Shown here piece by piece: positions 9,974 through 56,726 of a DNA stretch of 64,000 bases. Numbering within the stretch: position 1 is the first letter of the stretch; every line of letters starts with the position of its first letter. This stretch comes from an uncultured Candidatus Saccharibacteria bacterium. GTDB taxonomy: Bacteria; Patescibacteriota; Minisyncoccia; Phycocordibacterales; UBA918. Under the pieces are notes generated by a model. That model searched no databases and was not told the DNA's origin. It saw only the letters and a program-made list of their open reading frames with translations. The stretch lies in the NCBI GenBank assembly GCA_964350645.1, contig CAYGJY010000002.1, positions 246,431 through 310,430 on the forward strand, given 5' to 3'. The position numbers and the translations under genes are program-made.

Positions 9974-10027
9974 ACAAGAAAACCGCCTCAAAGGCGGTTT
10001 TCTATTCTTCTAGATATTTCCATGTCT

Positions 10028-10419
10028 GGTGGAGATGGGGGTATTGAAACCCCGTCCGAATTAATCTGCCGTTGTGCGTCTACAGTGTGTAGTCGTTTCT
10101 TTGATTTAAAGTAGTGGCCTAAAGAAAAGACAAAACAATCACTACTCGAGTTGCTGCATCTTGGGCACTTGGCACAACCGACCAAGTTTCCACAGTCTGA
10201 TGTTTATTCCACCCGTACTACCTTACCAGACATGGGGTAGACGAGCGTCGTACCGGCGAGCGAGTGGTTACGCTACAGCGGGTGCGAATCCGAACGCGTT
10301 AGCGTACGGACTTGGTACAGATTTGTTTGCATCTATACGTAGCCGCCTTTTAACGAATGGCGGCCAATTTCGACACTGCACACAATGACAACAACTAACC
10401 GTCGATGCCTAGCATCCCC
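10028..10419 (-). ncRNA. ssrA: tmRNA (ssrA), ~392 nt.
   Basis: Minus-strand 5' GGGGAUGCUAGGCAUCGAC and 3' ...GGACGGGGUUUCAAUACCCCCAUCUCCACCA (tRNA-like end, acceptor pairs with 5' end); internal tag ORF GCA AAC AAA ... GCU GUA GCG UAA = ANKSVPSPYANAFGFAPAVA*; smpB adjacent. Confidence 0.75.
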
Positions 10420-22048: not shown

Positions 22049-22121
22049 CCGCCTGTAGCTCAGTTGGTAGAGCGCGAAGCTTATACCTTCGTGGTCCCAG
22101 GTTCAAGTCCTGGCGGGCGGA
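22049..22121 (+). tRNA. tRNA with anticodon UAU (Ile, AUA-decoding type).
   Basis: Cloverleaf: acceptor CCGCCTG/CGGGCGG (T6:G wobble), D-arm TAGCTCAGTTGGTAGAGC, anticodon stem CGAAG/CTTCG with loop CTTATAC, T-arm CCAGGTTCAAGTCCTGG; Ile-like backbone. Confidence 0.7.
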
Positions 22122-22135
22122 CTAGTTTCAGTAAT

Positions 22136-23341
22136 ATGTTTATCCCAACTAAAACACAAGCAGAAGCAATTCGACAGGAGTTTGGCACACCGGTTTTTGT
22201 GTCTGATGCAGCCACGATTAGAACTAATGCTCAGAACCTGTTAGAAGCATTTGCAGATCTCAATCTAAAAATCTTCTACGCGGTTAAGGCGAACTATAAT
22301 CCGACGGTTGTGAAAACCGTCAAGGAAGCTGGGGTCTATGGTATCGACGCGGTATCAGTAAATGAGATCAAACACGTCATGAAGCTTGGTTACACGGCAG
22401 AACAAATCATCTTCACACCGAGTAATCCATCGACAGAAGAAATGAAGATGGTGGGGGAGTTGGGTGTGTTGCAAAATTTAGGTTCAATTTCTGAGCTCAA
22501 GCGTTTTGGTGAATTATTTCCGGGCGGCAAGGTGTCAGTGCGGATTTGTCCTAAAGTTGGGGCAGGGGAATTTAAGCAGGTAACGACAGGTGGTGAGTCG
22601 TCGAAGTTTGGGGTGTCGTTTGCTGATCTTGATAAAGTGGCCAAGGTTTGTAATGAAGCGAATGTCACAGTGGTAGGAATCCATAGTCATATTGGTTCTG
22701 GCTTTTATGATGCAGTGGCATTTAAATATTCAGTTGAAGCGGTACTCGATGTGGCACGCCGGTTTGGTTCGGTACAACACGTCGACTTCGGCGGCGGTTT
22801 TGGTGTGCAGTATCATATAGACAAACCAGAAATTAACTTGGCAGAATTTGCTGCTGCAATTATGGCACCGGTACAAGCGTATAAGGAAGATACAGGGATT
22901 GATCTTGAGCTTCGGATTGAACCAGGGAAATATTTGGTTTCAAACGCCGTGGCCCTCTTAGCAGAAGTGACAACGGTAAAGCAAAAAGGAGATATTACGT
23001 TTGTTGGACTGAATACAGGTTTTAATCATTTGATTCGACCAGCAATGTATAACGCGTATCACCATATTGTGAATGTAAGCGATCCTGAGGGTACTAGGAA
23101 ATGGGTTGAGGTAGTTGGAAATGTTTGCGAGACGTGCGATGTCTTTAACGGTGGAATTGAAGTGGCAGACCCGAAAGAAGGTGATGTGTTGGCAATCTTA
23201 GTCGCTGGTGGGTATGGGGCAGCAATGAGTAGCAACTATAATATGCAGTCACTGGCCGCTGAGGTGATGATTGATGGTGATGATATGAAACTCACCCGTC
23301 GCCGACAGACATTGGAAGATATCACCGCGCAGTTTATATAA
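22136..23341 (+). CDS. lysA: PLP-dependent decarboxylase of the Orn/DAP/Arg family (likely diaminopimelate decarboxylase).
   Basis: 'FYAVKANYNPTVV' PLP-lysine motif, 'GGGFGV' and C-terminal beta-domain; start trimmed to 22136 (ORF-track start overlaps tRNA). Terminator 23361-23397. Confidence 0.75.
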   Translation: MFIPTKTQAEAIRQEFGTPVFVSDAATIRTNAQNLLEAFADLNLKIFYAVKANYNPTVVKTVKEAGVYGIDAVSVNEIKHVMKLGYTAEQIIFTPSNPSTEEMKMVGELGVLQNLGSISELKRFGELFPGGKVSVRICPKVGAGEFKQVTTGGESSKFGVSFADLDKVAKVCNEANVTVVGIHSHIGSGFYDAVAFKYSVEAVLDVARRFGSVQHVDFGGGFGVQYHIDKPEINLAEFAAAIMAPVQAYKEDTGIDLELRIEPGKYLVSNAVALLAEVTTVKQKGDITFVGLNTGFNHLIRPAMYNAYHHIVNVSDPEGTRKWVEVVGNVCETCDVFNGGIEVADPKEGDVLAILVAGGYGAAMSSNYNMQSLAAEVMIDGDDMKLTRRRQTLEDITAQFI

Positions 23342-40606: not shown

Positions 40607-42400
40607 ATGGATGTATTACAAAGTTTACAATCACAGCAGATCATCTCACCTGAGGTAGTTACTAAGGTTGAACAAAGAGTTGGTAAAGATGGTGAATCAT
40701 ACGAATTAGCTCTCCTGGCGGAAGGAGTTTCGTCTGATGTGTTGAGAGATTCTTTTTCGTCATATTATGGTGTGCCGAGTCATATCTTTCGAGAAGAAGA
40801 TGAAGTCACCGAGGAAATACTTTCATACATACCTGAAGATTCTGCGCGACATTATAAAATTATCCCGCTCAAAGTAGAGGATGAGGTACTTGTTGTTGGT
40901 GTCAACGACCCGGAAGATTTACAGATTCGCGAAGTTCTGAGTTTTATCAGTAGCAAACACGGTTTGCCGTATAAGTTAGTCTTCATGCTGAAGGCTGATT
41001 TGGAGAAAGCGCTGCAGGCATATGACAACTTAACCGGTGAAGTTGACGAAGCCCTCACCTCACTTGAAGATGAACTGAGTGCCAAAACAGACCCTAAATC
41101 GAAAGAAGAAGAATCAAAAGATGCCCTTGAGCACCTTAAAGAGGACGCTCCTGTTACTAAAATTGTGGCTACAATTTTACGTTATGCAGTAGACGGTGGA
41201 GCTTCTGATATTCACGTTGAACCAAATGATACTAAAGTCAAAGTTCGTTTCCGAGTAGATGGTATTTTAGCGACTAGTTTAGAATTACCAGTAAAAGTCC
41301 AATCGGCAGTGGTGGCGCGAGTAAAGATTTTGTCCTCAATGCGCCTTGATGAGAGACGTAAGCCACAAGATGGTCGATTCTCGGCGACCTTTGACGGTCG
41401 GAAGATTGACTTCCGTGTTTCAATTCTCCCGACAAATCATGGCGAAAAGATTGTGATGCGTATTTTAGATAATGTGAAGGGCGTCAGCACTTTAGCTGAT
41501 ACTGGAATTTCAGAACGCCATATCGAATCTATTCGACGAATGGTACAAGAGCCGTTTGGTATTATTTTAATCTCGGGTCCAACTGGATCTGGTAAGTCGA
41601 CTACGTTGTACGCCATGTTAGGCGAGATCGATAAACAAAGTAAAAATGTTTTGTCACTAGAAGATCCAGTTGAGTATAATATTGAAGGAGTCAGTCAATC
41701 TCAAGTACGACCAGAGATTGGGTATACGTTTGCAGCCGGGCTGCGTACGGCGCTCCGTCAAGATCCTGACGTGATTCTCGTGGGTGAGATTCGTGATAAA
41801 GAAACCGCTCAACTAGCGATTCAGGCTGCTCTTACTGGTCACTTGGTTCTATCTACTATTCACACCAACAACTCGATTGGAGTGATTCCGCGTCTTATTG
41901 ACATGGGGGTTGATCCTTATTTGATCGCTCCGACTCTGAAGCTCGCAATTGCCCAACGATTGGCTCGTCGCATTTGCCCTGGCACTGGTAAAGAAGAGTC
42001 AATTGACGGTAGTATCGAAACTATGATGAATCGCGAGTTTGAAACCCTGCCAGAGCGATATCATTCAGTCATTCCAAAATCTCGGACTGTATTGCATCCA
42101 GAACCGTCGGCGGGGTGTGCCACTGGTACTAAGGGGCGGGTAGCAGTGACGGAATTATTTGAAGTGACAACCGAAATAGAGGGTTTGATTTTACGCGGTG
42201 CGTCAGAAGAAGATATGTATCAAGCGGCTCGTAAAAATGGATTTGTGAGTATTAAAGAAGACGCTATCATTAAAGCGCTTAATCATACTATTCCGTATGA
42301 AGAAGTCAGTGTCTTCGGTACGAAGGTTGGTCAAGAAAATGTATTACAAGAAGAGTCTCCTGTCGATAACCTGCTAAAAGAAGATTCACTTGACGTATAA
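40607..42400 (+). CDS. pilB: Type IV pilus assembly ATPase PilB (GspE family).
   Basis: Walker A 'GPTGSGKSTT', Asp box, His box, tetracysteine-like region 'CPGTG...CATGTKGR'. Confidence 0.9.
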   Translation: MDVLQSLQSQQIISPEVVTKVEQRVGKDGESYELALLAEGVSSDVLRDSFSSYYGVPSHIFREEDEVTEEILSYIPEDSARHYKIIPLKVEDEVLVVGVNDPEDLQIREVLSFISSKHGLPYKLVFMLKADLEKALQAYDNLTGEVDEALTSLEDELSAKTDPKSKEEESKDALEHLKEDAPVTKIVATILRYAVDGGASDIHVEPNDTKVKVRFRVDGILATSLELPVKVQSAVVARVKILSSMRLDERRKPQDGRFSATFDGRKIDFRVSILPTNHGEKIVMRILDNVKGVSTLADTGISERHIESIRRMVQEPFGIILISGPTGSGKSTTLYAMLGEIDKQSKNVLSLEDPVEYNIEGVSQSQVRPEIGYTFAAGLRTALRQDPDVILVGEIRDKETAQLAIQAALTGHLVLSTIHTNNSIGVIPRLIDMGVDPYLIAPTLKLAIAQRLARRICPGTGKEESIDGSIETMMNREFETLPERYHSVIPKSRTVLHPEPSAGCATGTKGRVAVTELFEVTTEIEGLILRGASEEDMYQAARKNGFVSIKEDAIIKALNHTIPYEEVSVFGTKVGQENVLQEESPVDNLLKEDSLDV

Positions 42401-42409
42401 TGTATTTAT

Positions 42410-42775
42410 ATGAAACTTCTGCTCGTTGATGATGATGCCTTTTTACGTGATATGTACGCGACAAAGTTCACGGAGGCTAAACACGATGTTTCAGTAGTAA
42501 AGAGTGGCGAGGAAGCACTTATTCTGCTTGATCAGGGAGAGGCATTTGATGTGATTGTTATGGATATGGTTATGCCAGGGATTACTGGTGTAGAGTTGCT
42601 AAAGAAAATTAAAAAAATTGGAAGTGGAGAAACCGCCAAATGTGTCATTCTTTCAAATCAGGGTGAACAATCAGACATTCAGGCAGCTACAGCAGCTGGA
42701 GCGGTTGGTTATATTGTCAAAGCTGAATCTATCCCGAGTCAAGTGGTAAAAAAAATTGAAGAGTTAGCAGCATAA
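42410..42775 (+). CDS. Stand-alone CheY-like response-regulator receiver domain (PilH-like).
   Basis: 'LLLVDDDAFLR', phospho-acceptor region 'DVIVMDMVMPG', 'GYIVK'; 121 aa. Confidence 0.8.
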   Translation: MKLLLVDDDAFLRDMYATKFTEAKHDVSVVKSGEEALILLDQGEAFDVIVMDMVMPGITGVELLKKIKKIGSGETAKCVILSNQGEQSDIQAATAAGAVGYIVKAESIPSQVVKKIEELAA

Positions 42776-42784
42776 TAGTTATAT

Positions 42785-43855
42785 ATGGCAGCCGTAGATT
42801 ACAAAAAAGAACTTAATGACTTAATGGAAGTGGTGACATCAGAAGATGGTTCTGATCTACACTTCTCTGTTGGGGTACACCCAATGGTGCGAGTAGCTGG
42901 CTCGCTTATACCGTTGGTAAAAAAGCCAATTTTGACTAATGATGATATGCATGGCTTTTGTAAAGTCCTTATGACTAAAGAGCAGTATGATACATATATT
43001 GAACTTCATGAGATGGACTTCTCGTATGCATATAAAGAAGGAGTACGTTTTCGTGGTAATGGCTATTTCGAGCGAGGCAATTTATCGGTTGCGTTACGCT
43101 TGATTCCCAATGAAATTCGTACCTTTGAAGAACTCAACCTTCCGACTATCCTTGAGAGTTTCGTAATGCGGCCACAGGGGTTTTTTCTTTGTGTTGGTCC
43201 AGTTGGACAAGGTAAGTCGACAACCCTTGCAGCGATGATTGAGCTAATTAATCAAACTCGATCAGAACATATTGTAACTATTGAAGATCCAATTGAATAT
43301 ATCTTTGAACCCAAAAAGTCTCTGATTGATCAGCGAGAGGTGAAAGTTGATACTAAAGATTTTGCAACTGCACTCAATGCTGCGTTCCGGCAAGATGTCG
43401 ACGTGATTATGGTGGGGGAGATGCGTAACCCAGAAACAATCTCTACAGCAGTAACGGCAGCTGAGACCGGTCACTTGGTGCTTTCGACCTTGCACACCAA
43501 CAGTGCAGCGCAGACAATTGATCGTATTATTGACAGTTTCCCGGCTGGCCAGCAGGGCCAGATTCGTATGCAGCTCTCAACCTCATTGGCTGGTATTTTC
43601 TCGCAGCGTCTCATTCCGCGTATTTCTGGAGGCATGGTGCCTACGTATGAACTCTTGATTAACAACAGTGCCGTTGCTAACTTAATTCGCGAAAAGCGCA
43701 CTCATGAGATTCAGACATTGATTGAAACTGGTCTTGAGCAAGGTATGATTGATATGAACCGTTCGCTAGTTGATCTAGTTAAGAAAGGAGAGATTACCGT
43801 TGAGAACGCATTTGCCTATTCAATTAATCCTAAGGGTCTTGAGCGACTCATGTAA
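42785..43855 (+). CDS. pilT: Twitching motility (retraction) ATPase PilT.
   Basis: Walker A 'GPVGQGKSTT', 'AAFRQDVDVIMVGEMR', His box 'GHLVLSTLHT'. Confidence 0.9.
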   Translation: MAAVDYKKELNDLMEVVTSEDGSDLHFSVGVHPMVRVAGSLIPLVKKPILTNDDMHGFCKVLMTKEQYDTYIELHEMDFSYAYKEGVRFRGNGYFERGNLSVALRLIPNEIRTFEELNLPTILESFVMRPQGFFLCVGPVGQGKSTTLAAMIELINQTRSEHIVTIEDPIEYIFEPKKSLIDQREVKVDTKDFATALNAAFRQDVDVIMVGEMRNPETISTAVTAAETGHLVLSTLHTNSAAQTIDRIIDSFPAGQQGQIRMQLSTSLAGIFSQRLIPRISGGMVPTYELLINNSAVANLIREKRTHEIQTLIETGLEQGMIDMNRSLVDLVKKGEITVENAFAYSINPKGLERLM

Positions 43856-43857
43856 AT

Positions 43858-45066
43858 ATGATTTTTTCTTATAAGGCGATTGACCAAAATAACGCTTCTC
43901 GTGAAGGAACTGTCGAGGCAACCAACATTGACGCAGCGATTTCAACAGTACAAAAGCGAGGTTATACGGTAATTTCGATTGAACCGATTGAAGAAAAAAA
44001 AGCGTTTTATGAAATTCAGTTTGACTGGTTTCAGGGAGTTTCGAATAAAGAGGTAGTAATCCTCTCGCGGCAGCTTGCAACGTTGTTTGATGCGCAAGTT
44101 TCAGCGCTACGTATTTTCCGTTTAATGGCAGCAGAGTCTGAGAGTCCCCAGTTACGCAATGTGCTCAACACAATCGCTGATGATTTGCAGTCAGGAAGCT
44201 CAATCTCGAGAGCGCTTGCCGGTCATCCAAGTGTGTTTTCGTCTTTTTATGTCAACATGGTGAAAGCTGGTGAAGAGTCAGGTTCACTTGAACAATCATT
44301 TGCATACCTGGCAGATTATCTTGATCGGACCTATCAAATCGTTACTAAAGCACGTAACGCTCTTGTTTATCCAGCCTTTGTGGTGGGAGTGTTTGTGTTG
44401 GTGATGGGACTCATGCTCACCTTGGTTATTCCAAAGATCGCTCAGATTTTGACTGATTCAGGTCAGGAATTGCCAATTTATACCAAAATCGTAATTGGTC
44501 TGTCTTCATTTCTCTCGAACTACATTGGCCTCATATTAGTGCTCGGTTCGTTTGTTGGAGTAGGTATCTGGAAGTTTGCTCAAACCGACGTTGGTAAACG
44601 AGCTCTCGATGAGCTTAAGATTAGCGTGCCATACTTAGGCGACCTTTTCAGAAAACTCTACCTCACTCGTATTTGTGATAACTTAGCCACGATGTTGAGT
44701 AGTGGTATTTCAATGGTGCAAGCACTCGAAGTAACTGGTGAAGTGGTTGATAATGCTGTCTACAAAGAAATTATTACCAACACGCTAATTGAAGTCAAAG
44801 GTGGACGATCATTTTCAGATTCTATTTCTGCCTACCCGGAAATCCCAGGCGTATTGTCACAAATGGCTAAGGTTGGAGAAGAGACGGGTAACTTATCTGA
44901 AATTTTGACGACCTTAGCCACATTCTATCAACGTGAAGTGAATAATGCGGTGGACACTCTAATCGGACTCATTGAGCCATTAATGATTGTGATGCTTGGT
45001 CTTGGGGTTGGAACTTTGCTGGCTTCAGTTTTGATGCCTATTTACAATCTGACGAGCGCTATTTAG
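43858..45066 (+). CDS. pilC: Type IV pilus platform protein PilC (GspF family).
   Basis: Two GspF repeats, 402 aa, 3 TM. Confidence 0.9.
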   Translation: MIFSYKAIDQNNASREGTVEATNIDAAISTVQKRGYTVISIEPIEEKKAFYEIQFDWFQGVSNKEVVILSRQLATLFDAQVSALRIFRLMAAESESPQLRNVLNTIADDLQSGSSISRALAGHPSVFSSFYVNMVKAGEESGSLEQSFAYLADYLDRTYQIVTKARNALVYPAFVVGVFVLVMGLMLTLVIPKIAQILTDSGQELPIYTKIVIGLSSFLSNYIGLILVLGSFVGVGIWKFAQTDVGKRALDELKISVPYLGDLFRKLYLTRICDNLATMLSSGISMVQALEVTGEVVDNAVYKEIITNTLIEVKGGRSFSDSISAYPEIPGVLSQMAKVGEETGNLSEILTTLATFYQREVNNAVDTLIGLIEPLMIVMLGLGVGTLLASVLMPIYNLTSAI

Positions 45067-45243
45067 GAAAATAAGAAGTCCGCAAAGCGGACGGCTATAT
45101 GTCCTTAAGCATTCTTGTCCACACCTCGTCACCGTTTCATTATAGTTCTACGTATAATTATAGGTAAACCCTGTAACGTAGGGCAGTCTATCGAAGCAAA
45201 CAGCTGTGGCTTCGATGGAAATCATTAATAAATAAAAGTTTTT

Positions 45244-45708
45244 ATGACAAAACAACTATTCAAACGAGGGTTTACCCTCATCGAACTCCTGGTGGTGATT
45301 GCCATCATCGGTATCTTGGCTTCTGTTGTGCTGGCTTCTTTGAACTCCGCGCGAGACAAGGGAACTGATGCAGCGATTCAGTCTGGGGTTAATAACTTCC
45401 GAGCCCAAGCAGAAATTATTGGCCAGCAAGCCAATGGTTCAGTCAATTATGACACTGTCTGTAGTGGTACGGGTGCAGGTTCGACTGAGGCTTTGCGAAC
45501 AGATGTCGATGCAAAAAATGGAGCAACTGCTTCTAATATGTATTGTGCAGATGACCAAGACGAATGGGTATTTGCTACCCAATTGGTTGGGGCACCTGGA
45601 GATTTCATTTGTATTGACTCAACTGGAGCTTCTGGGGTTACAACTGGGGTAATCGATGCGGCTTCGACAGGCAATAACTGTGCAGCTGTGATCGCTTCAA
45701 GTCCGTAA
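45244..45708 (+). CDS. Type IV pilin (major pilin candidate).
   Basis: Class III signal '[23 protein letters not shown]' with G-1/F+1/E+5; two terminator-like hairpins downstream (45729-45756; perfect 19-bp-stem palindrome 45757-45797). Confidence 0.8.
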
Positions 45709-45806
45709 AGTTTTACGTACAAACAAAAAAAGCGCCTTTTGGCGCTTTTTTTGTTTGTACAGTATGTTCGGCGCCTGCGGCGCCGAACATACTGTACAAT
45801 TAAGCA

Positions 45807-46634
45807 ATGGAAATACCGTTCCTTTCATACTACCTCGCGTTCACTGTGTTTGTTTTTGGAGCCATTATCGGTAGTTTTTTGAATGTAGTTATATATCGTT
45901 TCCATACGGGTAAGTCCCTCAATGGCGATTCACACTGTTTGTCGTGCCTTGAGCCATTACGTTGGTTTGAATTATTTCCACTCGTATCGTATCTCTGTCT
46001 GCGAGGAAAGTGCCGTACCTGTGCCTCCTATATACCACCTCGTTATTTTGTGGTTGAACTAGCTACTGCCTTGGGATTCTTGGGTATCTACAGTCTTGGG
46101 AGCTCTTTTATAACTATGTTTTTCTTGGGGATGGTCTTGGCAGTCCTGATTGTGATTGCTGTCTATGATCTCTATCATTTTGTCATTCCCAATGAGCTTG
46201 TGCTTTTGCTTGGCGTTATTGCGGTAGCAGAATCTGGCTATCGTTTGTACGAAGGAATGGCCTATACAGCTCTACTCAATCCGGTACTCTCAGCGCTAGG
46301 GGCGTTTATGTTTTTTGCTAGCTTATGGAAATTCTCCAAAGGTCGCTGGATTGGATTTGGTGATGCCAAGTTAGCGATACCGCTCGGTTTCATGGCTGGA
46401 TTTCCGGCAGTCTTTTCACTAGTCGTTTTATCGTTTTGGATCGGGGCAGTGCTCAGTGTGGCTTTATTAGGTTTACAACAATTAAGCCACAGGGGAAAAT
46501 TATCCTTACAATTTTATGGTGCAGAACTTACAATGAAGAGTGAGATTCCGTTTGCGCCATTTCTTATCCTTGGCTTTATCCTCAGTACTATATATAGAAT
46601 TGATGTGCTGACAATAATTACGTATGTTTTTTAA
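45807..46634 (+). CDS. pilD: Prepilin peptidase PilD (A24 family).
   Basis: N-terminal tetracysteine 'CLSCLEPL...CRTCASYI', catalytic Asp region, multi-TM. Confidence 0.85.
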   Translation: MEIPFLSYYLAFTVFVFGAIIGSFLNVVIYRFHTGKSLNGDSHCLSCLEPLRWFELFPLVSYLCLRGKCRTCASYIPPRYFVVELATALGFLGIYSLGSSFITMFFLGMVLAVLIVIAVYDLYHFVIPNELVLLLGVIAVAESGYRLYEGMAYTALLNPVLSALGAFMFFASLWKFSKGRWIGFGDAKLAIPLGFMAGFPAVFSLVVLSFWIGAVLSVALLGLQQLSHRGKLSLQFYGAELTMKSEIPFAPFLILGFILSTIYRIDVLTIITYVF

Positions 46635-47244
46635 GTTGTTTAAAATTAAACGCGGTACTACGAGAGGTTTCTCTTTGATTGAAGTACTCATCACTTCTGC
46701 AATTATTGGTATTTTAACGGGAGTTGTCTTGGTACGATACAATGGCTTTAACAGTTCAGTCTTGCTTAAAAATCAAGCGTTTGAGCTGGCGCTTGCAATT
46801 CGTGAAGCTCAGGTATTTTCGGTCAGCATCAGGGGTGACGGTAGTGAATTTCGTGAAGCTTATGGTGTACATATCGATCTAACAAGTGGTCCAACTCAAA
46901 CGTACACCTTGTTCCTAGACAACGGTAGTGATGCTGAGTTATTTGATGCCAGTGATCAGATAGTTGAGACCGTGTTGATTGACTCACGTTTTGAGATACA
47001 TGATATATGCGTGACTATCGGTGGGTCAGAGCGTTGTTCGTCTGCATCAGGAAATAGTGACCCTAATTCGCTCGATGTTTCATTTAGACGACCAAACTTT
47101 GATGCACGAATTGGTGGGGTGAGAAACAGCGGTAGTAATTTTACAAGACAGGATTCAGCTAGAATCTTATTACGCAGTATCGGGATAGATTCTATAGAAC
47201 GACAGTTGGTGATTAATAGTACTGGGCAGATTACGGTAGAATAA
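46624..47244 (+). CDS. Pseudopilin / minor pilin 1.
   Basis: 'RGFSLIEVLITSAIIGIL' prepilin signal. Confidence 0.7.
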   Translation: MFFKLFKIKRGTTRGFSLIEVLITSAIIGILTGVVLVRYNGFNSSVLLKNQAFELALAIREAQVFSVSIRGDGSEFREAYGVHIDLTSGPTQTYTLFLDNGSDAELFDASDQIVETVLIDSRFEIHDICVTIGGSERCSSASGNSDPNSLDVSFRRPNFDARIGGVRNSGSNFTRQDSARILLRSIGIDSIERQLVINSTGQITVE

Positions 47245-47246
47245 AT

Positions 47247-47879
47247 ATGATGCGGCGTACTCAACAACAGCGTGGCTTTACTCTCGTAGAAATGCTCGTT
47301 TCACTTGGCCTTTTTTCAGTTGTGGCGACCATGAGTGTTGGGACACTTCTAGTGTTGATCGATGCTAATGCTCGGGCTCAGAGTATGCAGCTGGTAATGA
47401 CTAATCTCTCTTTCTCAATGGACAGTATGACTCGCGAACTTCGTACTGGTTTTAATTGGTATTGCGGAGCTGCTGATACAACTGTCGATGGTGATGATAA
47501 GCAAGATTGCTCTGTGGCCGATAACGCTGAGATGATCTCGTTGGTTGAAAGTGGTCGCAATACGACCGGGGGGTCAAACTTCGATGAGCGGCGAATTAAT
47601 TATTATTTTGATGCTGATTATTACGGTACTGGCAGAGGTGCAATTTTGCGTTTGCTTGGTCAGGGTGGGACGCCACAGCCTCTTACTGGAGGCGACATTG
47701 ACGTCGATCAATTTGAATTGGTAGTTACTGGGACAGCGGTCGGTTCAGATGGTAATAATGAGCAACCCAATGCGAGTATTTTTATTAAAGGAAAAGCAGA
47801 CGTCATCGCTGGTGGGCAAGTGGGATCCCGGGAATTTGCGTTGCAGACCACGGTAACGCAGCGTTTAATTGATTATTAA
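47247..47879 (+). CDS. Pseudopilin / minor pilin 2.
   Basis: 'RGFTLVEMLVSLGLFSVV' prepilin signal. Confidence 0.7.
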   Translation: MMRRTQQQRGFTLVEMLVSLGLFSVVATMSVGTLLVLIDANARAQSMQLVMTNLSFSMDSMTRELRTGFNWYCGAADTTVDGDDKQDCSVADNAEMISLVESGRNTTGGSNFDERRINYYFDADYYGTGRGAILRLLGQGGTPQPLTGGDIDVDQFELVVTGTAVGSDGNNEQPNASIFIKGKADVIAGGQVGSREFALQTTVTQRLIDY

Positions 47880-48485
47880 TATGAAATTGCAGACACGCAT
47901 AGATGGATATTCTTTAGTTGAAGCACTAGTGGCGATCTCGATTTTATTGATTGCAATTGTTTCTCCGATGACGATTGCGGTTCAGGGAATTAAAACGTCA
48001 AATTACGCCCTCGAGCAAAATACTGCGTTCTTTTTGGCCCAAGAAGGAATTGAGTCACTGTTTGCTTTGCGAAGTGATCATGAGCTGTTAACTTTTTATG
48101 ATTCAGGTTACTCAGGAGATTGGATTAGCAATGAACTAAATGGCTCTGGCCCTTGCGCGTTAAATAGCACTGGGGATACTTGTAGTTTTGGAGTGAGCTT
48201 TGCCGCAGACGGTACGGTTGTATTCAATCATGGGTCTAATCAGTGTTCGTCTGGCAACGAAGAGCGTTGTCGATTGTATTATGACGAGGCGGACGTACCC
48301 TCGACCTATTCACACAGCGCAGCAGGTGCGGGCGCATCCGCAAGTCAATTTATTCGAATTATCACGGTGACCTATGAGCAGCCGTATGTCGTGAGTGTCG
48401 TTTCTGAGGTCATCTGGAATTCGGTGGTCTTTGGTGGCGCAGCTCAAACGGTAACTTTAGAAACTAGTTTGTTTGATTTAAGTTT

Positions 48486-48489
<4 letters not shown>
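47869..48489 (+). CDS. Pseudopilin / minor pilin 3.
   Basis: 'DGYSLVEALVAISILLIAIV' prepilin-like signal; Cys-rich globular domain. Confidence 0.65.
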
Positions 48490-51076
<2,587 letters not shown>

Positions 51077-51101: not shown

Positions 51102-51395
51102 ATGACTAAAGAAGAAGTATTGCGACTTGGTGAATTAGCTAGAATACAATTGTCAGAGGCAGAAGTGACTCAGTTTCAAAAAGAAATTGGTGATATTTTA
51201 GGCTACGTGAGTACCATCGATGATGTTGTAAAAGAAGGAGCGCTTGAGAAAAAAGTAGGGGCAGTTTTCAATGTTTTTCGCGAAGATGAAATAACCAACG
51301 AACCAGGTTCTTACACGGCTGATTTGTTAGCTGAGATGCCAGATACCGATGGAAACTATCTGCGCGTTAAAAAAATTCTAAAACAAGACGATTAA
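51102..51395 (+). CDS. gatC: Glu/Asp-tRNA amidotransferase subunit C.
   Basis: 97 aa, 'LARIQLSEAEV...' GatC pattern, immediately upstream of gatA. Confidence 0.8.
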   Translation: MTKEEVLRLGELARIQLSEAEVTQFQKEIGDILGYVSTIDDVVKEGALEKKVGAVFNVFREDEITNEPGSYTADLLAEMPDTDGNYLRVKKILKQDD

Positions 51396-51398
51396 CCT

Positions 51399-52829
51399 AT
51401 GACTATTACTGATTTACGGAAAAAGTTTTTGGATGGGTCGTATACACCGACCGACGCAGTTAATGCTACATTGGGAATTATTAAAGAGAAGGATACTGAT
51501 GTCCATGCGTATTTAGAGGTGTATGAAGATGCGGTCGAGGGAGCAAAGTTGGCCACGACAAAGTTTTCCGAGTCAGGAGCAGCTGATTTACCGCTTTTAG
51601 GGGTGCCGTTGGCTATTAAAAATAATATTTTAATTAAGGGCAAGAAAGCGACGGGGGGATCAAAAATTCTGGAAAATTATACTGCTACCTATGATGCTAC
51701 TGTCATCACTAAACTCAAAGCGGCGGGAGCAATTTTTGTCGGGGCCACCAACCTAGATGAGTTTGCTATGGGTGGCTCAACTGAAAATTCAGCTTATGGC
51801 CCAACCAAAAACCCACGTGACCTCACTCGAGTGCCAGGGGGTTCTTCTGGAGGATCAGCAGCAGCGGTGGCAATGGATTCAGTGCCAGCAGCGATTGGGA
51901 CTGATACTGGTGGTTCTATCCGCCAACCAGCCAGTTTTTGTGGTTTGGTTGGCTTCAAGCCAACTTATGGAGCGGTTTCTCGCTATGGATTGATGGCCAT
52001 GGGTTCAAGCTTTGACCAGGCAGGGCCACTTACAAATTCAGTTACTGACGCAGAACTCTTGCATGGAATTATGGCGGGTCGTGATCAAAATGATATGACC
52101 ACTATTAGTCCAGACACTTATCCAGAAGTTGTCACCAAAGATACATACACTATCGGTGTGCCACGAGATTTCCTGGCATCTGGAGTTGATGCGGCAGTGA
52201 TGAAAGAATTTGAAAAGCACCTTGAGACTATGCAGGCGGCTGGTCATGAAGTTGTTGATATCGACCTGCCACTGTTCAAAACCGGTCTAGCAGCATACTA
52301 CATTTCTATGCCTGCTGAAGTGTCATCAAACTTAGCTCGTTATGATGGTATGCGCTATGGCACCAGAATAGCGGGGGATGACCTGTTAGCAGAATATCTA
52401 CATTCACGAGGCGAAGGATTTGGCCCCGAAGTAAAGCGTCGAATCTTGATTGGTACCTACGTGTTATCTTCTGGATATTATGACGCCTATTATGGAAAGG
52501 CCGAGGCGCTTCGTCGCATGATGCGGGCAGAACTGCAGGATACTTTTGCTAAAGTCGATCTTATTACAATGCCAACAGCACCAACCCCAGCCTTCAAACT
52601 TGGGGAAATCTCAGATCCACTGGCAGCGTATGCGCAAGATATTTTTACCGTACCAGTCAATCTGACTGGAGTGCCAGCCATCTCCTTACCAGTTGGTTCG
52701 GTGTCAGCTATAACCGACAGTCAACAACCGGGAGCGGCAAAGCTACCAGTTGGGGTACAATATATAGCACCACACGCAGGTGACGCTCGACTCTTTGACC
52801 TCGGTAAAAAAGTCATGGGCGAAGCCTAG
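51399..52829 (+). CDS. gatA: Glu/Asp-tRNA amidotransferase subunit A (amidase signature).
   Basis: Amidase signature 'GGSSGGSAAAVA' and Ser-cisSer-Lys triad context. Confidence 0.9.
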   Translation: MTITDLRKKFLDGSYTPTDAVNATLGIIKEKDTDVHAYLEVYEDAVEGAKLATTKFSESGAADLPLLGVPLAIKNNILIKGKKATGGSKILENYTATYDATVITKLKAAGAIFVGATNLDEFAMGGSTENSAYGPTKNPRDLTRVPGGSSGGSAAAVAMDSVPAAIGTDTGGSIRQPASFCGLVGFKPTYGAVSRYGLMAMGSSFDQAGPLTNSVTDAELLHGIMAGRDQNDMTTISPDTYPEVVTKDTYTIGVPRDFLASGVDAAVMKEFEKHLETMQAAGHEVVDIDLPLFKTGLAAYYISMPAEVSSNLARYDGMRYGTRIAGDDLLAEYLHSRGEGFGPEVKRRILIGTYVLSSGYYDAYYGKAEALRRMMRAELQDTFAKVDLITMPTAPTPAFKLGEISDPLAAYAQDIFTVPVNLTGVPAISLPVGSVSAITDSQQPGAAKLPVGVQYIAPHAGDARLFDLGKKVMGEA

Positions 52830-52838
52830 TGGCTTTCT

Positions 52839-53441
52839 ATGCCTGACAGCAATGACATTACGTATCAAGCCTATCAAATTGATTTTGTCTTCTTAGGACG
52901 ACGCCTGTTTGATATTTTTGGTTTAGATGCACTGTCTTTTGATGCGGTACTTTCTTTTCTCAATACTGCTTGGGATATTTTTACAGTTATCTCGCTGGGC
53001 ATATCAACGCTGCTCGTGATCGGGATTATTTATGCGTATATCAGGTATAACCAAATGGGAGATTTGGAAACTGTCCAGGTTCAAACTCAAGAACGTTTGT
53101 GGGATGAATTGTATGGCAAAGACGCCACAAACAATCGCTGGGAAGATATTCAGAGTCATATTAGTACGGATAGCCCAAATGACTGGAAGTTAGCAATTAT
53201 TGAAGCCGATGTCATGCTTGAAGAAATGCTTGAGTCTGCCGGATACGCGGGTAATAGTATTGGTGATAAATTAAAAGGCGCTTCACCAAGCAACTTCCAG
53301 ACGCTTGATGCTGCCTGGAAAGCCCATCGCATTCGAAACCAGATTGCACACGGGGGTGCAGATTTTGTGTTAACTAAGAAAGTGGCTCAAGAAACCATTA
53401 CTCAATACCGGCAGGTGTTTCAGGAGTTCGGGGTGGTTTAG
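52839..53441 (+). CDS. TM-anchored protein with C-terminal HEPN-like motif 'HRIRNQIAHGG' (DUF4145/Apea-like candidate).
   Basis: TM helix 'IFTVISLGISTLLVIGIIYAYI'; C-terminal helical domain with R-N-x-x-A-H-G matching the HEPN Rx4-6H consensus. Confidence 0.4.
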   Translation: MPDSNDITYQAYQIDFVFLGRRLFDIFGLDALSFDAVLSFLNTAWDIFTVISLGISTLLVIGIIYAYIRYNQMGDLETVQVQTQERLWDELYGKDATNNRWEDIQSHISTDSPNDWKLAIIEADVMLEEMLESAGYAGNSIGDKLKGASPSNFQTLDAAWKAHRIRNQIAHGGADFVLTKKVAQETITQYRQVFQEFGVV

Positions 53442-53447
53442 TTATAT

Positions 53448-54104
53448 ATGGAAAATTTTCATAAAATTATACTTGAGTTCATCAGTAATAACGCTGGTCA
53501 GAGAATGATTATTGCAGTCGATGGTATTGATGCATCTGGTAAGTCCTGTTTTGCAAAAAAACTATATGAAACCATCGAAGCTCAGCATAAGCACACTATA
53601 CTAAGCTCAATTGATCATTTTCATAATCCTAGAATAGAGCGGTATAAAAAAGGTGTAGATTCACCGATTGGTTTCTATCAAGACTCCTTCAATCTACAGA
53701 TGTTGAAAGAAAAATTACTAAATCCATTTAAAACGGGCGAAACAATGGTCACATTAAAAGCGTTTGATTGTGATCTTGATGCACCTACCCAGACTGACCC
53801 TGTCACAGTTTTTGATGATTCTATTTTAATTTTTGAAGGAGTATTTGTTCAACGGGCTGAGCTTCGTAATTACTGGGATCTGACAATTTTTTTAGATATT
53901 ACGTTTGAAACTGCGCTAAAACGTAATATTGATCGTCAAGTTGATAAGGATAGAATTGGTTCAAAAGAGGAAATAATTAGTAGATACCAAACAAGATATC
54001 AGCCTGGTCAGCAATTATATTTCGATGAAGCAAAACCTAAAGAAAATTCAGATATCTTGATTGATAATAATGATTTTAATCAACCAATCTTGATAAGAGG
54101 TTAG
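53448..54104 (+). CDS. Uridine kinase-like P-loop nucleoside kinase; AT-rich gene.
   Basis: Walker A 'IAVDGIDASGKS', 'ILIFEGVF', 'DLTIFLDITFETALKRNIDR' collinear with Udk motifs. Confidence 0.6.
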   Translation: MENFHKIILEFISNNAGQRMIIAVDGIDASGKSCFAKKLYETIEAQHKHTILSSIDHFHNPRIERYKKGVDSPIGFYQDSFNLQMLKEKLLNPFKTGETMVTLKAFDCDLDAPTQTDPVTVFDDSILIFEGVFVQRAELRNYWDLTIFLDITFETALKRNIDRQVDKDRIGSKEEIISRYQTRYQPGQQLYFDEAKPKENSDILIDNNDFNQPILIRG

Positions 54105-54115
54105 ATTGTCAGTGG

Positions 54116-55102
54116 TTACGCTTCGTTACCAACTTTGCGAGCTCGGACAGGATTATCGAGATCAGTGCCAAGCTCTAATCCAACTGCAATCAATATCTGC
54201 CAAGTCGCGAGCAGTTGTAGGTAGGGATTAAAGTTTTCTAACTGAGGAATTTTAATAGTGGGGAAGCTGGTGTCTCGGTGACTGATAGCAATCACGCTTA
54301 GTCCAACACCATCCACAAGTACTTCTCTAATTTTTTCTTCCTCAGATTCGAACGGATCAATGACAATAACAACTTCATTTTTATCCATGACTTCTTCAAT
54401 CCCGTGTACACAGTATGTCCCTTCAAGATAGTCAGATTTTTTTCTAATTATTTCATTAGTTTTTAGAGCAGCTTCTTCGGCAACTCCGTTGTTTCTGCCA
54501 GAGAAATAGACCATATCTGCTTTCGCAATAGCTGTTACAACATCACTATCGATTGGTGTATTCAGCACCGTAGTTGCGGCGTCTGCTAAGTGCGTTAATT
54601 CAGATGCATCAATTGGATTTTCATTATATTCCCTAAATAATGAGTGATAAAACAAAGCTTGCTCAAAGACACTTTTAGTGGCGGCAGTCGCATGTTCAGA
54701 ACCACAGCTTAGGATAAATTCACCGTCGCTCAGTTCGCCAAGCTGCGTGCCTTGATGGGCAGTGAGGGCAAACTGCTGATTTGCTTTATTCATTTTGAAT
54801 AGTTCGATCACTTCTTTAGTTTTTCCAGAATTTGAAGCACCAAAGAGTGTATATGAAGATAAATCATACTCAGCTGCTTGCCGTGCTCCTTCGGTTACAA
54901 CTGCTATGTCTGGATCACTAATTTGAGCCAGATAGCGTAAGTGTTTTGCAGGGAAAATTCGCGAAGATCCCTCGCCACTTAAGAATAGCTTCTTAGTCTT
55001 TTTTAGTGACGTGAGTGGGGTGGTAAGGTCTGAGGTTGAAAATTTTTGTATAATAGTTGGAACCTCATTTGCTTCGCTGATTAAATTATAAGAGTAATTC
55101 AT
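54116..55102 (-). CDS. SIS-domain phosphosugar isomerase/aminotransferase-like protein.
   Basis: 'LFLSGEGSSR' and 'VYFSGRNNG' SIS phosphate-binding loops. Confidence 0.6.
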   Translation of the reverse strand: MNYSYNLISEANEVPTIIQKFSTSDLTTPLTSLKKTKKLFLSGEGSSRIFPAKHLRYLAQISDPDIAVVTEGARQAAEYDLSSYTLFGASNSGKTKEVIELFKMNKANQQFALTAHQGTQLGELSDGEFILSCGSEHATAATKSVFEQALFYHSLFREYNENPIDASELTHLADAATTVLNTPIDSDVVTAIAKADMVYFSGRNNGVAEEAALKTNEIIRKKSDYLEGTYCVHGIEEVMDKNEVVIVIDPFESEEEKIREVLVDGVGLSVIAISHRDTSFPTIKIPQLENFNPYLQLLATWQILIAVGLELGTDLDNPVRARKVGNEA

Positions 55103-55159
55103 TCATTTAAAATAGCAAACAAAATCCGCACAGACAAGCAGTGCGGATTTTGTAATTTG

Positions 55160-55230
55160 TTGCGGGGCCCGGACTCGAACCGGGGTCTGGAGGTTATGAG
55201 CCTCCCGAGGTACCACTCCTCTACCCCGCT
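55160..55230 (-). tRNA. tRNA-Met (CAU), initiator-like (tRNA-fMet candidate).
   Basis: Minus strand AGCGGGG...CCCCGCA-A with 1:72 mismatch, A11:U24, anticodon loop CUCAUAA, T-arm CCCGGTTCGAGTCCGGG; terminator hairpin downstream (55128-55155). Confidence 0.7.
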
Positions 55231-55337: not shown

Positions 55338-56018
55338 ATGCAATGCGTTATTTTAGCGGCCGGAAAGGGTTCGCGACTGAGACCTCTTACAGATGAAAAA
55401 CCAAAACCATTGGTTGAAGTATGTGGTAAACCATTACTCGATCATATAGTTGAAGCCTTTCCTTCAGCGATTAAAGAATTGATTATTGTGGTCGGCTATA
55501 AGGGAGAAATGATTCGCGACTATTGTGGTGAAACATTCCACGGCCGTCCAGTTACATACATTGAGCAAACAGAGATCAATGGGCCAGCTAAAGCACTTTG
55601 GCTCTGCAAGGGTCTCATTAAGGGTCGGTTCTTGTTCATGTTTGCTGATGATATCCATGGAGCAGATGATATGGCGAGAGCAGTGTCATATACGCGATCA
55701 ATCTTGGCAACTACTAGTCAGAACCCAGAAAGATTTGGCGTAATAGTTCGTAACCCTGACGGAACAATCGCTGAGATGGTAGAGAAACCAGCCGCGCCTT
55801 CTTCAAACCTAGTGGCGACTGGTCCGATGGTGCTTGATACACATATATTTGAATTTCCCCCAGAAGCACCAATCAACGATGAATACTTCATGCCTGAAAT
55901 TATTATGCGTTATAAAGAGCAGTATCCGATTGCTGTCGTAGAAGAACAATTGTGGTTGGCCGTTGGTTATCCAGAGGATATTGATCGAGCAGAGCAAAAG
56001 CTTTGCCCAGGAGCATAA
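55338..56018 (+). CDS. Sugar-phosphate nucleotidyltransferase (NTP_transferase) family protein, paralog 1.
   Basis: 'ILAAGKGSRLRPLT...KPLVEV' G-rich nucleotide-binding loop. Confidence 0.75.
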   Translation: MQCVILAAGKGSRLRPLTDEKPKPLVEVCGKPLLDHIVEAFPSAIKELIIVVGYKGEMIRDYCGETFHGRPVTYIEQTEINGPAKALWLCKGLIKGRFLFMFADDIHGADDMARAVSYTRSILATTSQNPERFGVIVRNPDGTIAEMVEKPAAPSSNLVATGPMVLDTHIFEFPPEAPINDEYFMPEIIMRYKEQYPIAVVEEQLWLAVGYPEDIDRAEQKLCPGA

Positions 56019-56027
56019 TCTATTTGT

Positions 56028-56726
56028 ATGCAGTGTGTATTAATTTGTGCAGGAAAGGGGACGCGCATGCGACCACTGACAGAGACGACACCAAAACCAC
56101 TAATTCCTGTGTGTGGTAAACCAGTACTTCAGCATATTATTGAAGCCCTACCACCAGAAATTGACGAACTTGTCTTAGTTGTGGGATATCTTAAAGAGCA
56201 AATTAAAGCGTATTGTGGAGATGAGTATCTAGGCAAAAGAGTTAGGTACTGCGAACAGGAAGATTTTGCTGCTGGGACTGGTGATGCGCTGTGGTGTGCA
56301 AAAGACTTGCTTCATGACACATTCCTGTTTATGTACGCTGACGATATCCATGGGGCACCGGCCCTGCAATCAATCGTTCGAGAAAAGCATGCCATGCTAG
56401 CCCAACGCTCAGATACACCAGAACGTTTTGGTGTATTGGTTCAGAACGAAGATGGGACGCTAAAAGAGATTATCGAGAAACCAGAGCATCCTCAATCAGA
56501 CTTGGTTAATGTTGGCGGTTTTTTGTTTACTGAAGCGATCTTTTCTTACTACGACACAATTCAAAAAAAAGATGATTCTTACTTAGTTGAATTGGTAGAA
56601 GCTTATGCTGCTGAGCATCCTGTTAAGGTCATTGTTCAGGATTCCTGGTTGCCGATTGGATATCCGGAACATATTGCTGCAGCAGAAGCAGTCTTGTGCC
56701 CGGATATGATTGATCAGCCGGACTAA
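56028..56726 (+). CDS. Sugar-phosphate nucleotidyltransferase family protein, tandem paralog 2.
   Basis: 'LICAGKGTRMRPLT...KPLIPV'; ~45% identical to paralog 1. Confidence 0.75.
   Translation: MQCVLICAGKGTRMRPLTETTPKPLIPVCGKPVLQHIIEALPPEIDELVLVVGYLKEQIKAYCGDEYLGKRVRYCEQEDFAAGTGDALWCAKDLLHDTFLFMYADDIHGAPALQSIVREKHAMLAQRSDTPERFGVLVQNEDGTLKEIIEKPEHPQSDLVNVGGFLFTEAIFSYYDTIQKKDDSYLVELVEAYAAEHPVKVIVQDSWLPIGYPEHIAAAEAVLCPDMIDQPD

Follow-up and report, generated by a model that had tools for sequence, protein, structure and literature searches.

A membrane-anchored HEPN-fold protein encoded directly after gatA represents an uncharacterized protein family of Patescibacteria

In a 64,000-nt stretch of DNA from an uncultured Candidatus Saccharibacteria bacterium (contig CAYGJY010000002.1; hereafter the window, to whose positions the coordinates refer), the gene directly after gatA encodes a protein of 200 amino acids (52839-53441), labeled X here for both gene and protein. 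Our best reading, to which we give a rough probability of 0.6, is that X is an uncharacterized, vertically inherited HEPN core protein of the gatCA operon, which is tethered in the membrane, faces the cytoplasm, most likely acts as an endoribonuclease, and is unrelated to the kinase encoded downstream. This reading draws on the predicted fold of the C-terminal domain, an Rx4H motif that is invariant among the homologs, and the position of the gene after gatA in every X-bearing locus analyzed. An earlier sequence-only reading had framed X as a possible toxin of a toxin–antitoxin (TA) or abortive-infection (Abi) system and the downstream kinase as its possible partner.

Results

Predicted HEPN fold and Rx4H motif of X

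The two open reading frames (ORFs) from which the sequence-only reading had started, one of 200 amino acids after gatA and one of 218 amino acids behind it (53448-54104), exist as described. Nothing significant was obtained for X in Pfam, NCBIfam, or PADLOC. No HEPN match appeared in Pfam at E ≤ 1, and a match to DUF3653 was noise. Searches of the PDB sequences with X, as a single sequence and as a profile, likewise gave no HEPN match and returned only noise driven by the transmembrane (TM) segment, and a weak match to Cas13e (E = 0.05, residues 158-196, which include the motif) was found in the curated libraries.

The AlphaFold2 (AF2) model of the domain alone (residues 96-200) had a mean predicted local distance difference test score (pLDDT) of 94.4 and a predicted TM-score (pTM) of 0.88. 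In this model, the domain (amino acids ~100-200) was composed of long helices at 113-134, 156-171, and 180-197 with short elements between them. In the Foldseek search, the top six matches were all HEPN proteins, with probabilities of up to 0.97, and LsoA, Las1, AbiA, and HepS were found lower in the list of structural matches.

The HEPN superfamily has been defined as all-alpha domains of ~100-120 amino acids that form a four-helix up-down bundle of two alpha-hairpins, in which helices 2 and 3 are frequently separated by an insert. The definition includes an Rx4-6H motif with a polar residue (N, D, or H) directly after the arginine and, upstream of it, another conserved acidic position that is usually part of Ex3[KR]; the activity is that of a metal-independent endoribonuclease that leaves 2′,3′-cyclic phosphate ends, with the active site at the dimer interface (Anantharaman et al. 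2013, PMC3710099). In the model, X shows the all-alpha helical bundle of this definition, and it carries the Rx4-6H motif with its polar residue in the stretch HRIRNQIAHGG. The acidic residues E122 and D124 are located on helix 1, in the context EADxxLE rather than Ex3[KR].

A loose Rx4-6H pattern was present in 33 of the 72 long ORFs of the window and is therefore uninformative alone; the strict form R[NDH]xxxH occurred in 2 of the 72 and RNxxAH only in X. The motif of X carries weight because it is conserved across homologs: R166, N167, A170, and H171 were invariant in 28/28 close homologs and in every one of the 50%-identity cluster representatives compared (150/150). In addition, W116 was found in 151/151 X-family sequences, D124 in 150/151, and E122 in 147/151, and H163 was also conserved. 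The HEPN-type fold and the RNxxAH motif proposed earlier were thus borne out by AF2, Foldseek, and the homologs, whereas the finer label "DUF4145/Apea-like" proved to be only approximate. In a Pfam scan of 129 X-family members, the sub-threshold matches were to HEPN_Swt1 (7 members), HEPN_RiboL-PSP (3), DUF4145 (2, best 6.8e-5), and pEK499_p136 (1); no curated HEPN model reached its threshold. On the structural models and alignments, we place X within the HEPN superfamily and outside all curated families.

Membrane anchor and topology of X

X contains a single strongly hydrophobic segment at approximately amino acids 46-68, where the 19-residue Kyte-Doolittle mean reaches a peak of 2.34. The AF2 model of full-length X (pLDDT 81) showed a TM-plus-stalk helix spanning residues 34-92 and a helical C-terminal domain, in agreement with the N-terminal TM helix reported in the sequence-only reading. 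Along the chain, the pLDDT was 91-96 over residues 41-60 and 56-65 over residues 71-100.

Two TM segments were found in 81 of the 150 best X-family representatives. In the long forms (300-700 amino acids), TM1 is followed by several SH3b-like repeats, TM2, and then the HEPN domain; the repeats correspond to Pfam SH3_3 (best 6.6e-11). Five members of 437-696 amino acids (P0174, P0181, P0206, P0208, and P0266) carry up to ~6 of these repeats between their two TM helices, with the rough consensus GxxGxVxxGPxxxxGxRYWxVDFxxGxDGWVxE. The members of 600-700 amino acids were also considered as GatA-X fusions, and this was rejected, their N-terminal parts consisting of TM1 and SH3b-like repeats. The cytoplasmic part is the sole portion common to the short and long forms, and many relatives have TM1 and SH3b-like repeats in place of the short N terminus of X.

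Since the SH3b-type repeats lie between two TM helices, it can be argued that the HEPN domain faces the cytoplasm. The acidic N terminus of X and the arginine right after the TM helix (R69) are consistent with an N-out/C-in orientation. X would then expose its short N-terminal part outside and its HEPN domain to the cytoplasm.

Position of X in the gat operon region

The forward test covered 88 X-bearing loci, namely, 80 species genomes and 8 places looked up by exact protein, and these loci take in a second, more distant X subfamily with different downstream neighbors. In all of them (88/88), gatA was the immediate upstream neighbor of X and shared its strand, the median gap being 11 nt, and gatC preceded gatA in nearly all (tblastn). 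The usual order was pilins-ligA-gatC-gatA-X, and the order pilin-ligA-gatCA-X is kept in most relatives. The sequence-only reading had itself named a conserved housekeeping protein with a constant place after gatA in relatives as the outcome that would refute it, and the 88 loci show this outcome; membership of X in a TA or Abi system is not supported by the genomic comparison. No conserved adjacent partner (MNT or another antitoxin or co-effector) was found in the 88 loci, there was no PADLOC match, and instead of a patchy, mobile distribution, the locus was fixed across more than 80 species genomes.

In the reverse test, which covered 80 gatA loci on metagenome contigs, an X-family member came next after gatA in 40 of the 80, and the classical gatA-gatB arrangement prevailed at the other loci where the downstream DNA was usable. 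Where gatA was at least 53% identical to that of the window and enough downstream DNA was present, X was next in line with the sole exception of L105. On a 212-kb contig (L112), the order was ligA-gatC-gatA-X-gatB (L112:2678-6295), in which gatA and X share 14 nt and a gap of 3 nt separates X from gatB, the latter confirmed by Pfam. The X protein of this contig has 146 amino acids, retains RNRLAH, and has no strong TM helix. At another locus, which has no X-family match, two small helical proteins with membrane anchors (Pfam DUF948 and YtxH) are encoded between gatA and gatB (L130:3607-4315); this pair shows an X-like architecture in the slot of X but belongs to different families. No gatB was found within ~5 kb of X in the Paceibacteria loci or anywhere in the 64-kb window.

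In the window, 9 nt separate the stop codon of gatA from the start of X, and 6 nt separate the stop codon of X from the start of the kinase gene. A promoter and terminator scan of the gatA/X/kinase intervals gave no convincing terminator, the site counts being no higher than those of shuffled controls. We infer that X is co-transcribed with gatC-gatA, at the operon position normally held by gatB. Because of the 88/88 adjacency, the reverse test, and the absence of mobile-element relatives described below, we regard X as a core gene that is inherited vertically within the gat operon region and not as a mobile defense gene.

Size and distribution of the X family

More than 586 X homologs were found at the level of 90%-identity clusters. 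A profile of the C-terminal domain, run against 1.84 billion representatives, yielded 2715 clusters at 50% identity at E ≤ 1e-3, of which 1625 reached E ≤ 1e-10; in this profile search the HEPN domain was always C-terminal. The family was present in more than 573 species genomes, all with Patescibacteria-type synteny, and the named sources were Patescibacteria of the Paceibacteria/Parcubacteria type (Pacebacteria, Kaiserbacteria, Nomurabacteria, and Taylorbacteria). No relatives were found among IMG/VR viral contigs, GenBank phages, or PLSDB plasmids, and no published description of the family was found in the literature on HEPN in Patescibacteria, also termed the candidate phyla radiation (CPR), on membrane-anchored HEPN proteins with SH3 domains, or on GatCAB in CPR bacteria. 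As judged from these homolog searches, the X family is large, uncharacterized, and specific to Patescibacteria (CPR).

Two X-bearing metagenome-assembled genome records are titled otherwise, L005 (JBLHGD010000003.1) as "Azotimanducaceae" and L012 (JBLIMJ010000032.1) as "Acidimicrobiales", yet both show the full Patescibacteria-type pilin-ligA-gatCA-X synteny, so that mis-binning or mislabeling is likely. Many other records bear the title "uncultured Candidatus Saccharibacteria", and this name may only be a placeholder.

Downstream kinase, SIS gene, and variable slot

The kinase is Udk-like, as had been read from its sequence. It matched Pfam PRK/uridine kinase (PF00485) with E = 9e-12 over residues 21-192 (45.6 bits against a cut-off of 22), contains the P-loop GIDASGKS (G26-S33), and is collinear over ~190 residues with human UCK2 (E = 1.4e-11) and with 1rz3 (E = 2e-16), the nearest solved structure, which is uncharacterized. 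The best NCBIfam model was PRK07667 "kinase" (E = 1.4e-29), with a score of 103 against a cut-off of 221, and the scores for the Udk equivalog models were 56.7 versus 220.3 bits (TIGR00235) and 57.8 versus 180 (NF004018). Thus, the P-loop and the collinearity are shared with Udk/UCK2 and with PRK07667/1rz3, whereas the scores lie far below the equivalog cut-offs and the distribution is sporadic, with 25 homologs detected. The earlier suggestion of an ordinary salvage Udk is not established by these scores, although a role as a nucleoside salvage kinase is plausible.

The GC content of the kinase gene was 33.3% in comparison with a window mean of 45.1% (SD 3.7) and 42.8% for X. Only 0.08% of equally long subwindows were as low, with a minimum of 33.2%, and the anomalously low GC content noted earlier was therefore confirmed. 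The SIS protein encoded convergently behind the kinase matched Pfam SIS (7e-8) and resembles the C-terminal half of GlmS, or GlmD/NagB-II; its NCBIfam matches to GlmS, GlmD, and NagB-II were all far below cut-off.

Neither the kinase nor the SIS gene was found in any of the 88 X-bearing loci. Three kinase homologs were looked up, and their contexts were NUDIX/Ham1/Gmk/RNR, EF-P, and TIM/SecG; none adjoins X. The proposal of the kinase as a partner of X was given up on this co-occurrence of 0/88 and on the unrelated contexts of its homologs. Among 26 relatives scanned, 21 had a 72-nt tRNA-Met downstream of X, at a distance of tens of nucleotides to ~2.7 kb and of less than 1 kb in most. Their order is X, 72-nt tRNA-Met, one or more NTP-transferase genes, 75-nt tRNA-Met, tRNA-Asp, and tRNA-Thr, and the window follows this order except for the kinase and the SIS gene, which fill the slot between X and the 72-nt tRNA-Met (53448-55230). 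In L001 (6733-8634), where the tRNA-Met is duplicated, the same slot holds a serine recombinase gene with a tRNA-Met gene on either side, and in L089 it holds a faint LAGLIDADG-type match. Because they occupy a slot that is variable in relatives, the kinase and the SIS gene are, by position and composition, a recent, AT-rich accessory insertion beside a tRNA gene, unrelated to X. The comparison shows the HEPN and kinase pair to be a chance juxtaposition that arose from insertion next to a tRNA gene.

Table 1. Features of X, its neighbors in the window, and divergent positional orthologs
Feature	Position	Strand	Basis or remark
ligA	49055-51076		Upstream of gatC; ORF listing
gatC, first gene of the conserved gatC-gatA-X unit	51102..51395	+	ORF; Pfam GatC in orthologs at related loci
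gatA, amidase subunit of tRNA-dependent amidotransferase	51399..52829	+	ORF; Pfam Amidase in orthologs
X, 200 amino acids, predicted membrane-anchored HEPN-fold protein	52839..53441, including stop codon	+	ORF
X, N-terminal part, ~45 residues, conserved start MPDxNDI	52839..52973	+	Alignment of close homologs; presumably extracytoplasmic
X, TM helix, amino acids 46-68, then R69	52974..53042	+	Hydropathy and AF2
X, juxtamembrane helical stalk, amino acids 69-92	53043..53114	+	AF2, continuous helix 34-92
X, predicted HEPN-fold domain, amino acids 100-200	53136..53438	+	
X, helix-1 motif WKLAIIEAD, amino acids 116-124, with conserved acidic E122 and D124	53184..53210	+	
X, Rx4H motif RNQIAH (R166, N167, H171), putative RNase active site	53334..53351	+	Invariance in homologs
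Udk-family P-loop kinase, 218 amino acids	53448..54104	+	ORF; Pfam PRK
SIS-domain protein, 328 amino acids, convergent	54116..55102	-	Pfam SIS
tRNA-Met, 72 nt	55159..55230	-	ARAGORN on the window
X orthologs without the Rx4H His and/or Arg, directly after gatA	L122, L137, L139, L143, L145, L147, L148, L160, L166		Metagenome contigs
Positional orthologs too divergent for the X profile	L129:4299-4772, L141:1593-2096		Same architecture and position

Other observations were made in the window. A type IV pilus cluster (40607-49022), with a PilB-like T2SSE ATPase, a T2SSF platform protein, and several consecutive pilin-like genes, lies immediately upstream of ligA. Two tandem paralogous NTP-transferase genes are found at 55338-56726, and the first (NTP1) reaches up to 84% identity in some relatives versus 44-47% for their X, so that NTP1 is unusually conserved against its neighbors. 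A tRNA-Ile gene with anticodon TAT (22049-22122) overlaps the annotated TTG start of an ORF resembling ornithine/diaminopimelate decarboxylase (22064-23341), and the start of this ORF is therefore probably further downstream. A transfer-messenger RNA gene is encoded on the minus strand (10027-10419), with the tag peptide ANKSVPSPYANAFGFAPAVA.

Discussion

Proposed function and competing explanations

X is probably a metal-independent endoribonuclease, as suggested by its predicted fold and its invariant motif. Tethered in the membrane with its HEPN domain at the inner face, it would presumably dimerize like other HEPN enzymes and could cut tRNA or mRNA there without metal, in a housekeeping or regulatory role tied to translation and the Gat pathway. 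Several points weigh against this proposal. The E-values of the Foldseek matches to HEPN proteins were ~0.3, and no curated HEPN model (DUF4145 PF13643, HEPN_Swt1 PF18731, HEPN_RiboL-PSP PF18735, or HEPN_Apea) matched X at threshold, so that X is treated as a separate family within the superfamily. The N-out/C-in topology rests on domain logic and the positive-inside rule. Across relatives, identities ranged over 40-68% for X, 58-72% for gatA, and 49-73% for ligA; the identity of X correlated weakly with that of gatA (r = 0.35) and ligA (r = 0.49) and is therefore not taken as evidence of co-evolution, and the adjacency of gatA and X could be frozen synteny in streamlined genomes instead of a functional link. 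Moreover, an unregulated HEPN RNase without an antitoxin is expected to be toxic, and some control mechanism must be assumed. The last point concerns the motif itself. In lineages whose gatA is 45-50% identical to that of the window, the gene after gatA is still an X-family member with the TM helix, the helix-1 motif KLA[VI][IL]EA[DE], and the same length, but the catalytic His and/or Arg was lost in 9 of 39 complete distant positional orthologs, with substitutions of H by Y, S, E, or D and of R by K or I. RNA cleavage may thus be dispensable for the function that all members share. With the site strict in the window clade and lost elsewhere, a substantial although clearly less probable rival is retained, in which X is a non-catalytic HEPN-like adaptor that binds RNA, nucleotide, or protein and, for example, tethers or regulates GatCAB, the transamidosome, or tRNA at the membrane. 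The Rx4H motif of the window clade would then be ancestral baggage or a binding site and would not serve cleavage. Such an adaptor would fit the nine orthologs that lost the motif while keeping the TM helix and helix 1, the still more degenerate proteins of L129 and L141 with their unchanged architecture and position, and the embedding of X between gatA and gatB in L112, and many HEPN domains are known as non-catalytic binders (PMC3710099). However, the motif is typically absent from non-catalytic HEPN families (PMC3710099), and it is difficult to account for the invariance of R166, N167, and H171 in all 150 clusters of the window clade unless the catalytic triad is under selection.

The two remaining explanations treat X as a toxin. 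X could be a chromosomally fixed stress or defense toxin, that is, an antitoxin-less HEPN RNase kept as an inactive, membrane-bound monomer, in which a signal at the envelope or surface (phage adsorption, host contact, or cell-wall damage) is sensed outside and leads to growth arrest in an Ire1-like manner. This idea gains from the observation that HEPN RNases are mostly effectors of conflict systems (PMC3710099) and from the stimulus-dependent RNA degradation that Anantharaman et al. proposed for membrane-associated HEPN proteins (PMC3710099). The outer part of the X family differs greatly between members, with ~45 residues at one extreme and multiple SH3b-like repeats at the other, while the cytoplasmic domain is constant, and the variable slot downstream of X is occupied in some relatives by a recombinase gene or by other accessory genes. 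We nevertheless consider it improbable, since defense genes are normally patchy and mobile, whereas X keeps its place after gatA in all 88 loci, diverges alongside its housekeeping neighbors gatA and ligA, was not found in the phage, plasmid, and viral-contig collections, and has no match in PADLOC. Still further from the data is a two-gene TA- or Abi-like module in which X is the toxin and the Udk-like kinase the antitoxin or co-effector. The shared strand, the 6-nt spacing, and weak PADLOC matches of the kinase to P-loop components (E ~1e-3) speak for such a module, but the kinase is missing from every X locus, the three homologs checked never adjoin X, the two genes differ in GC content (42.8% versus 33.3%), and in relatives the slot between X and tRNA-Met is empty or otherwise filled; this comparison refutes the module, to which we give hardly any credence.

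Comparison with known systems

Like the HEPN-MNT type II TA toxins (SO_3166, PDB 5yep; HEPN toxin 7ae2/8xdj), X has a single HEPN domain of ~100-130 amino acids with Rx4H and a polar residue. It differs from them in that it has no adjacent MNT or antitoxin gene, is predicted to be membrane-anchored, and shares 6-13% sequence identity with them, and it sits at a fixed core location after gatA (88/88), whereas those toxins are patchy and mobile. Membrane-associated HEPN groups have been described, namely, DUF4145 proteins with a WP-signature TM segment, Abi2/Swt1-type HEPN domains behind a TM helix, and HEPN-2TM-Zn-ribbon proteins (Anantharaman et al. 2013, PMC3710099). As in X, these groups combine one or more TM segments with a cytoplasmic, apparently catalytic HEPN domain and a possible outer sensor, and the Swt1 and DUF4145 profiles match the X family weakly. 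Unlike in the WP-signature group, the invariant W45 of X is followed by D, E, N, S, T, or L and never by P (W45-D46 in X itself). X also lacks the conserved globular alpha-helical N-domain and the Zn-ribbon of these groups, and its restriction to Patescibacteria and linkage to gatCA are a context not described for them. On homology and genomic context, the X family is an undescribed HEPN family and a core, gat-operon-linked membrane protein of CPR bacteria.

The KEN domain of Ire1 and RNase L and the Las1 protein are eukaryotic HEPN RNases recruited to core RNA processing; as proposed for X, the fold serves a core cellular role and is inherited vertically. In Ire1, an outer sensor and a TM helix are joined to a HEPN RNase activated by oligomerization, and the layout of X may follow the same logic, although X lacks a kinase domain and the KEN domain is a circular permutation. 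RNase Y of Firmicutes and other bacteria is a membrane-anchored, metal-dependent housekeeping endoribonuclease with KH and HD domains. X resembles it in having an N-terminal TM anchor, a helical segment, and a putative cytoplasmic RNase domain, and differs from it by the HEPN fold.

A more specific and speculative proposal, which we regard as doubtful, is that X is a membrane-tethered fourth component, unrecognized until now, of the tRNA-dependent amidotransferase system of CPR bacteria. In this capacity, it might anchor or regulate the GatCAB transamidosome, or act as a quality-control RNase on mischarged or uncharged tRNA, and its variable outer part, with SH3b-like repeats in many lineages, might couple envelope or host-contact signals to translation, as a minimal analog of Ire1.

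Significance

Bacterial HEPN RNases are known almost entirely as conflict effectors, in TA and Abi systems and as CRISPR accessory proteins or Cas13, and X, with its intact motif, shows the behavior of a core gene: it occurs in hundreds of Patescibacteria species, is locked to gatC-gatA, lies within gatCAB in one lineage, is predicted to be anchored in the membrane, and sometimes carries repeats of the cell-wall-binding type outside. Sister lineages that have lost the catalytic His provide a natural experiment for parting catalytic from non-catalytic roles. Should X prove to be an RNase, bacteria would have an example of a HEPN nuclease that was taken into housekeeping or signaling RNA metabolism, like Las1 and Ire1 in eukaryotes, and one of the many conserved CPR genes without a known role would gain a function.

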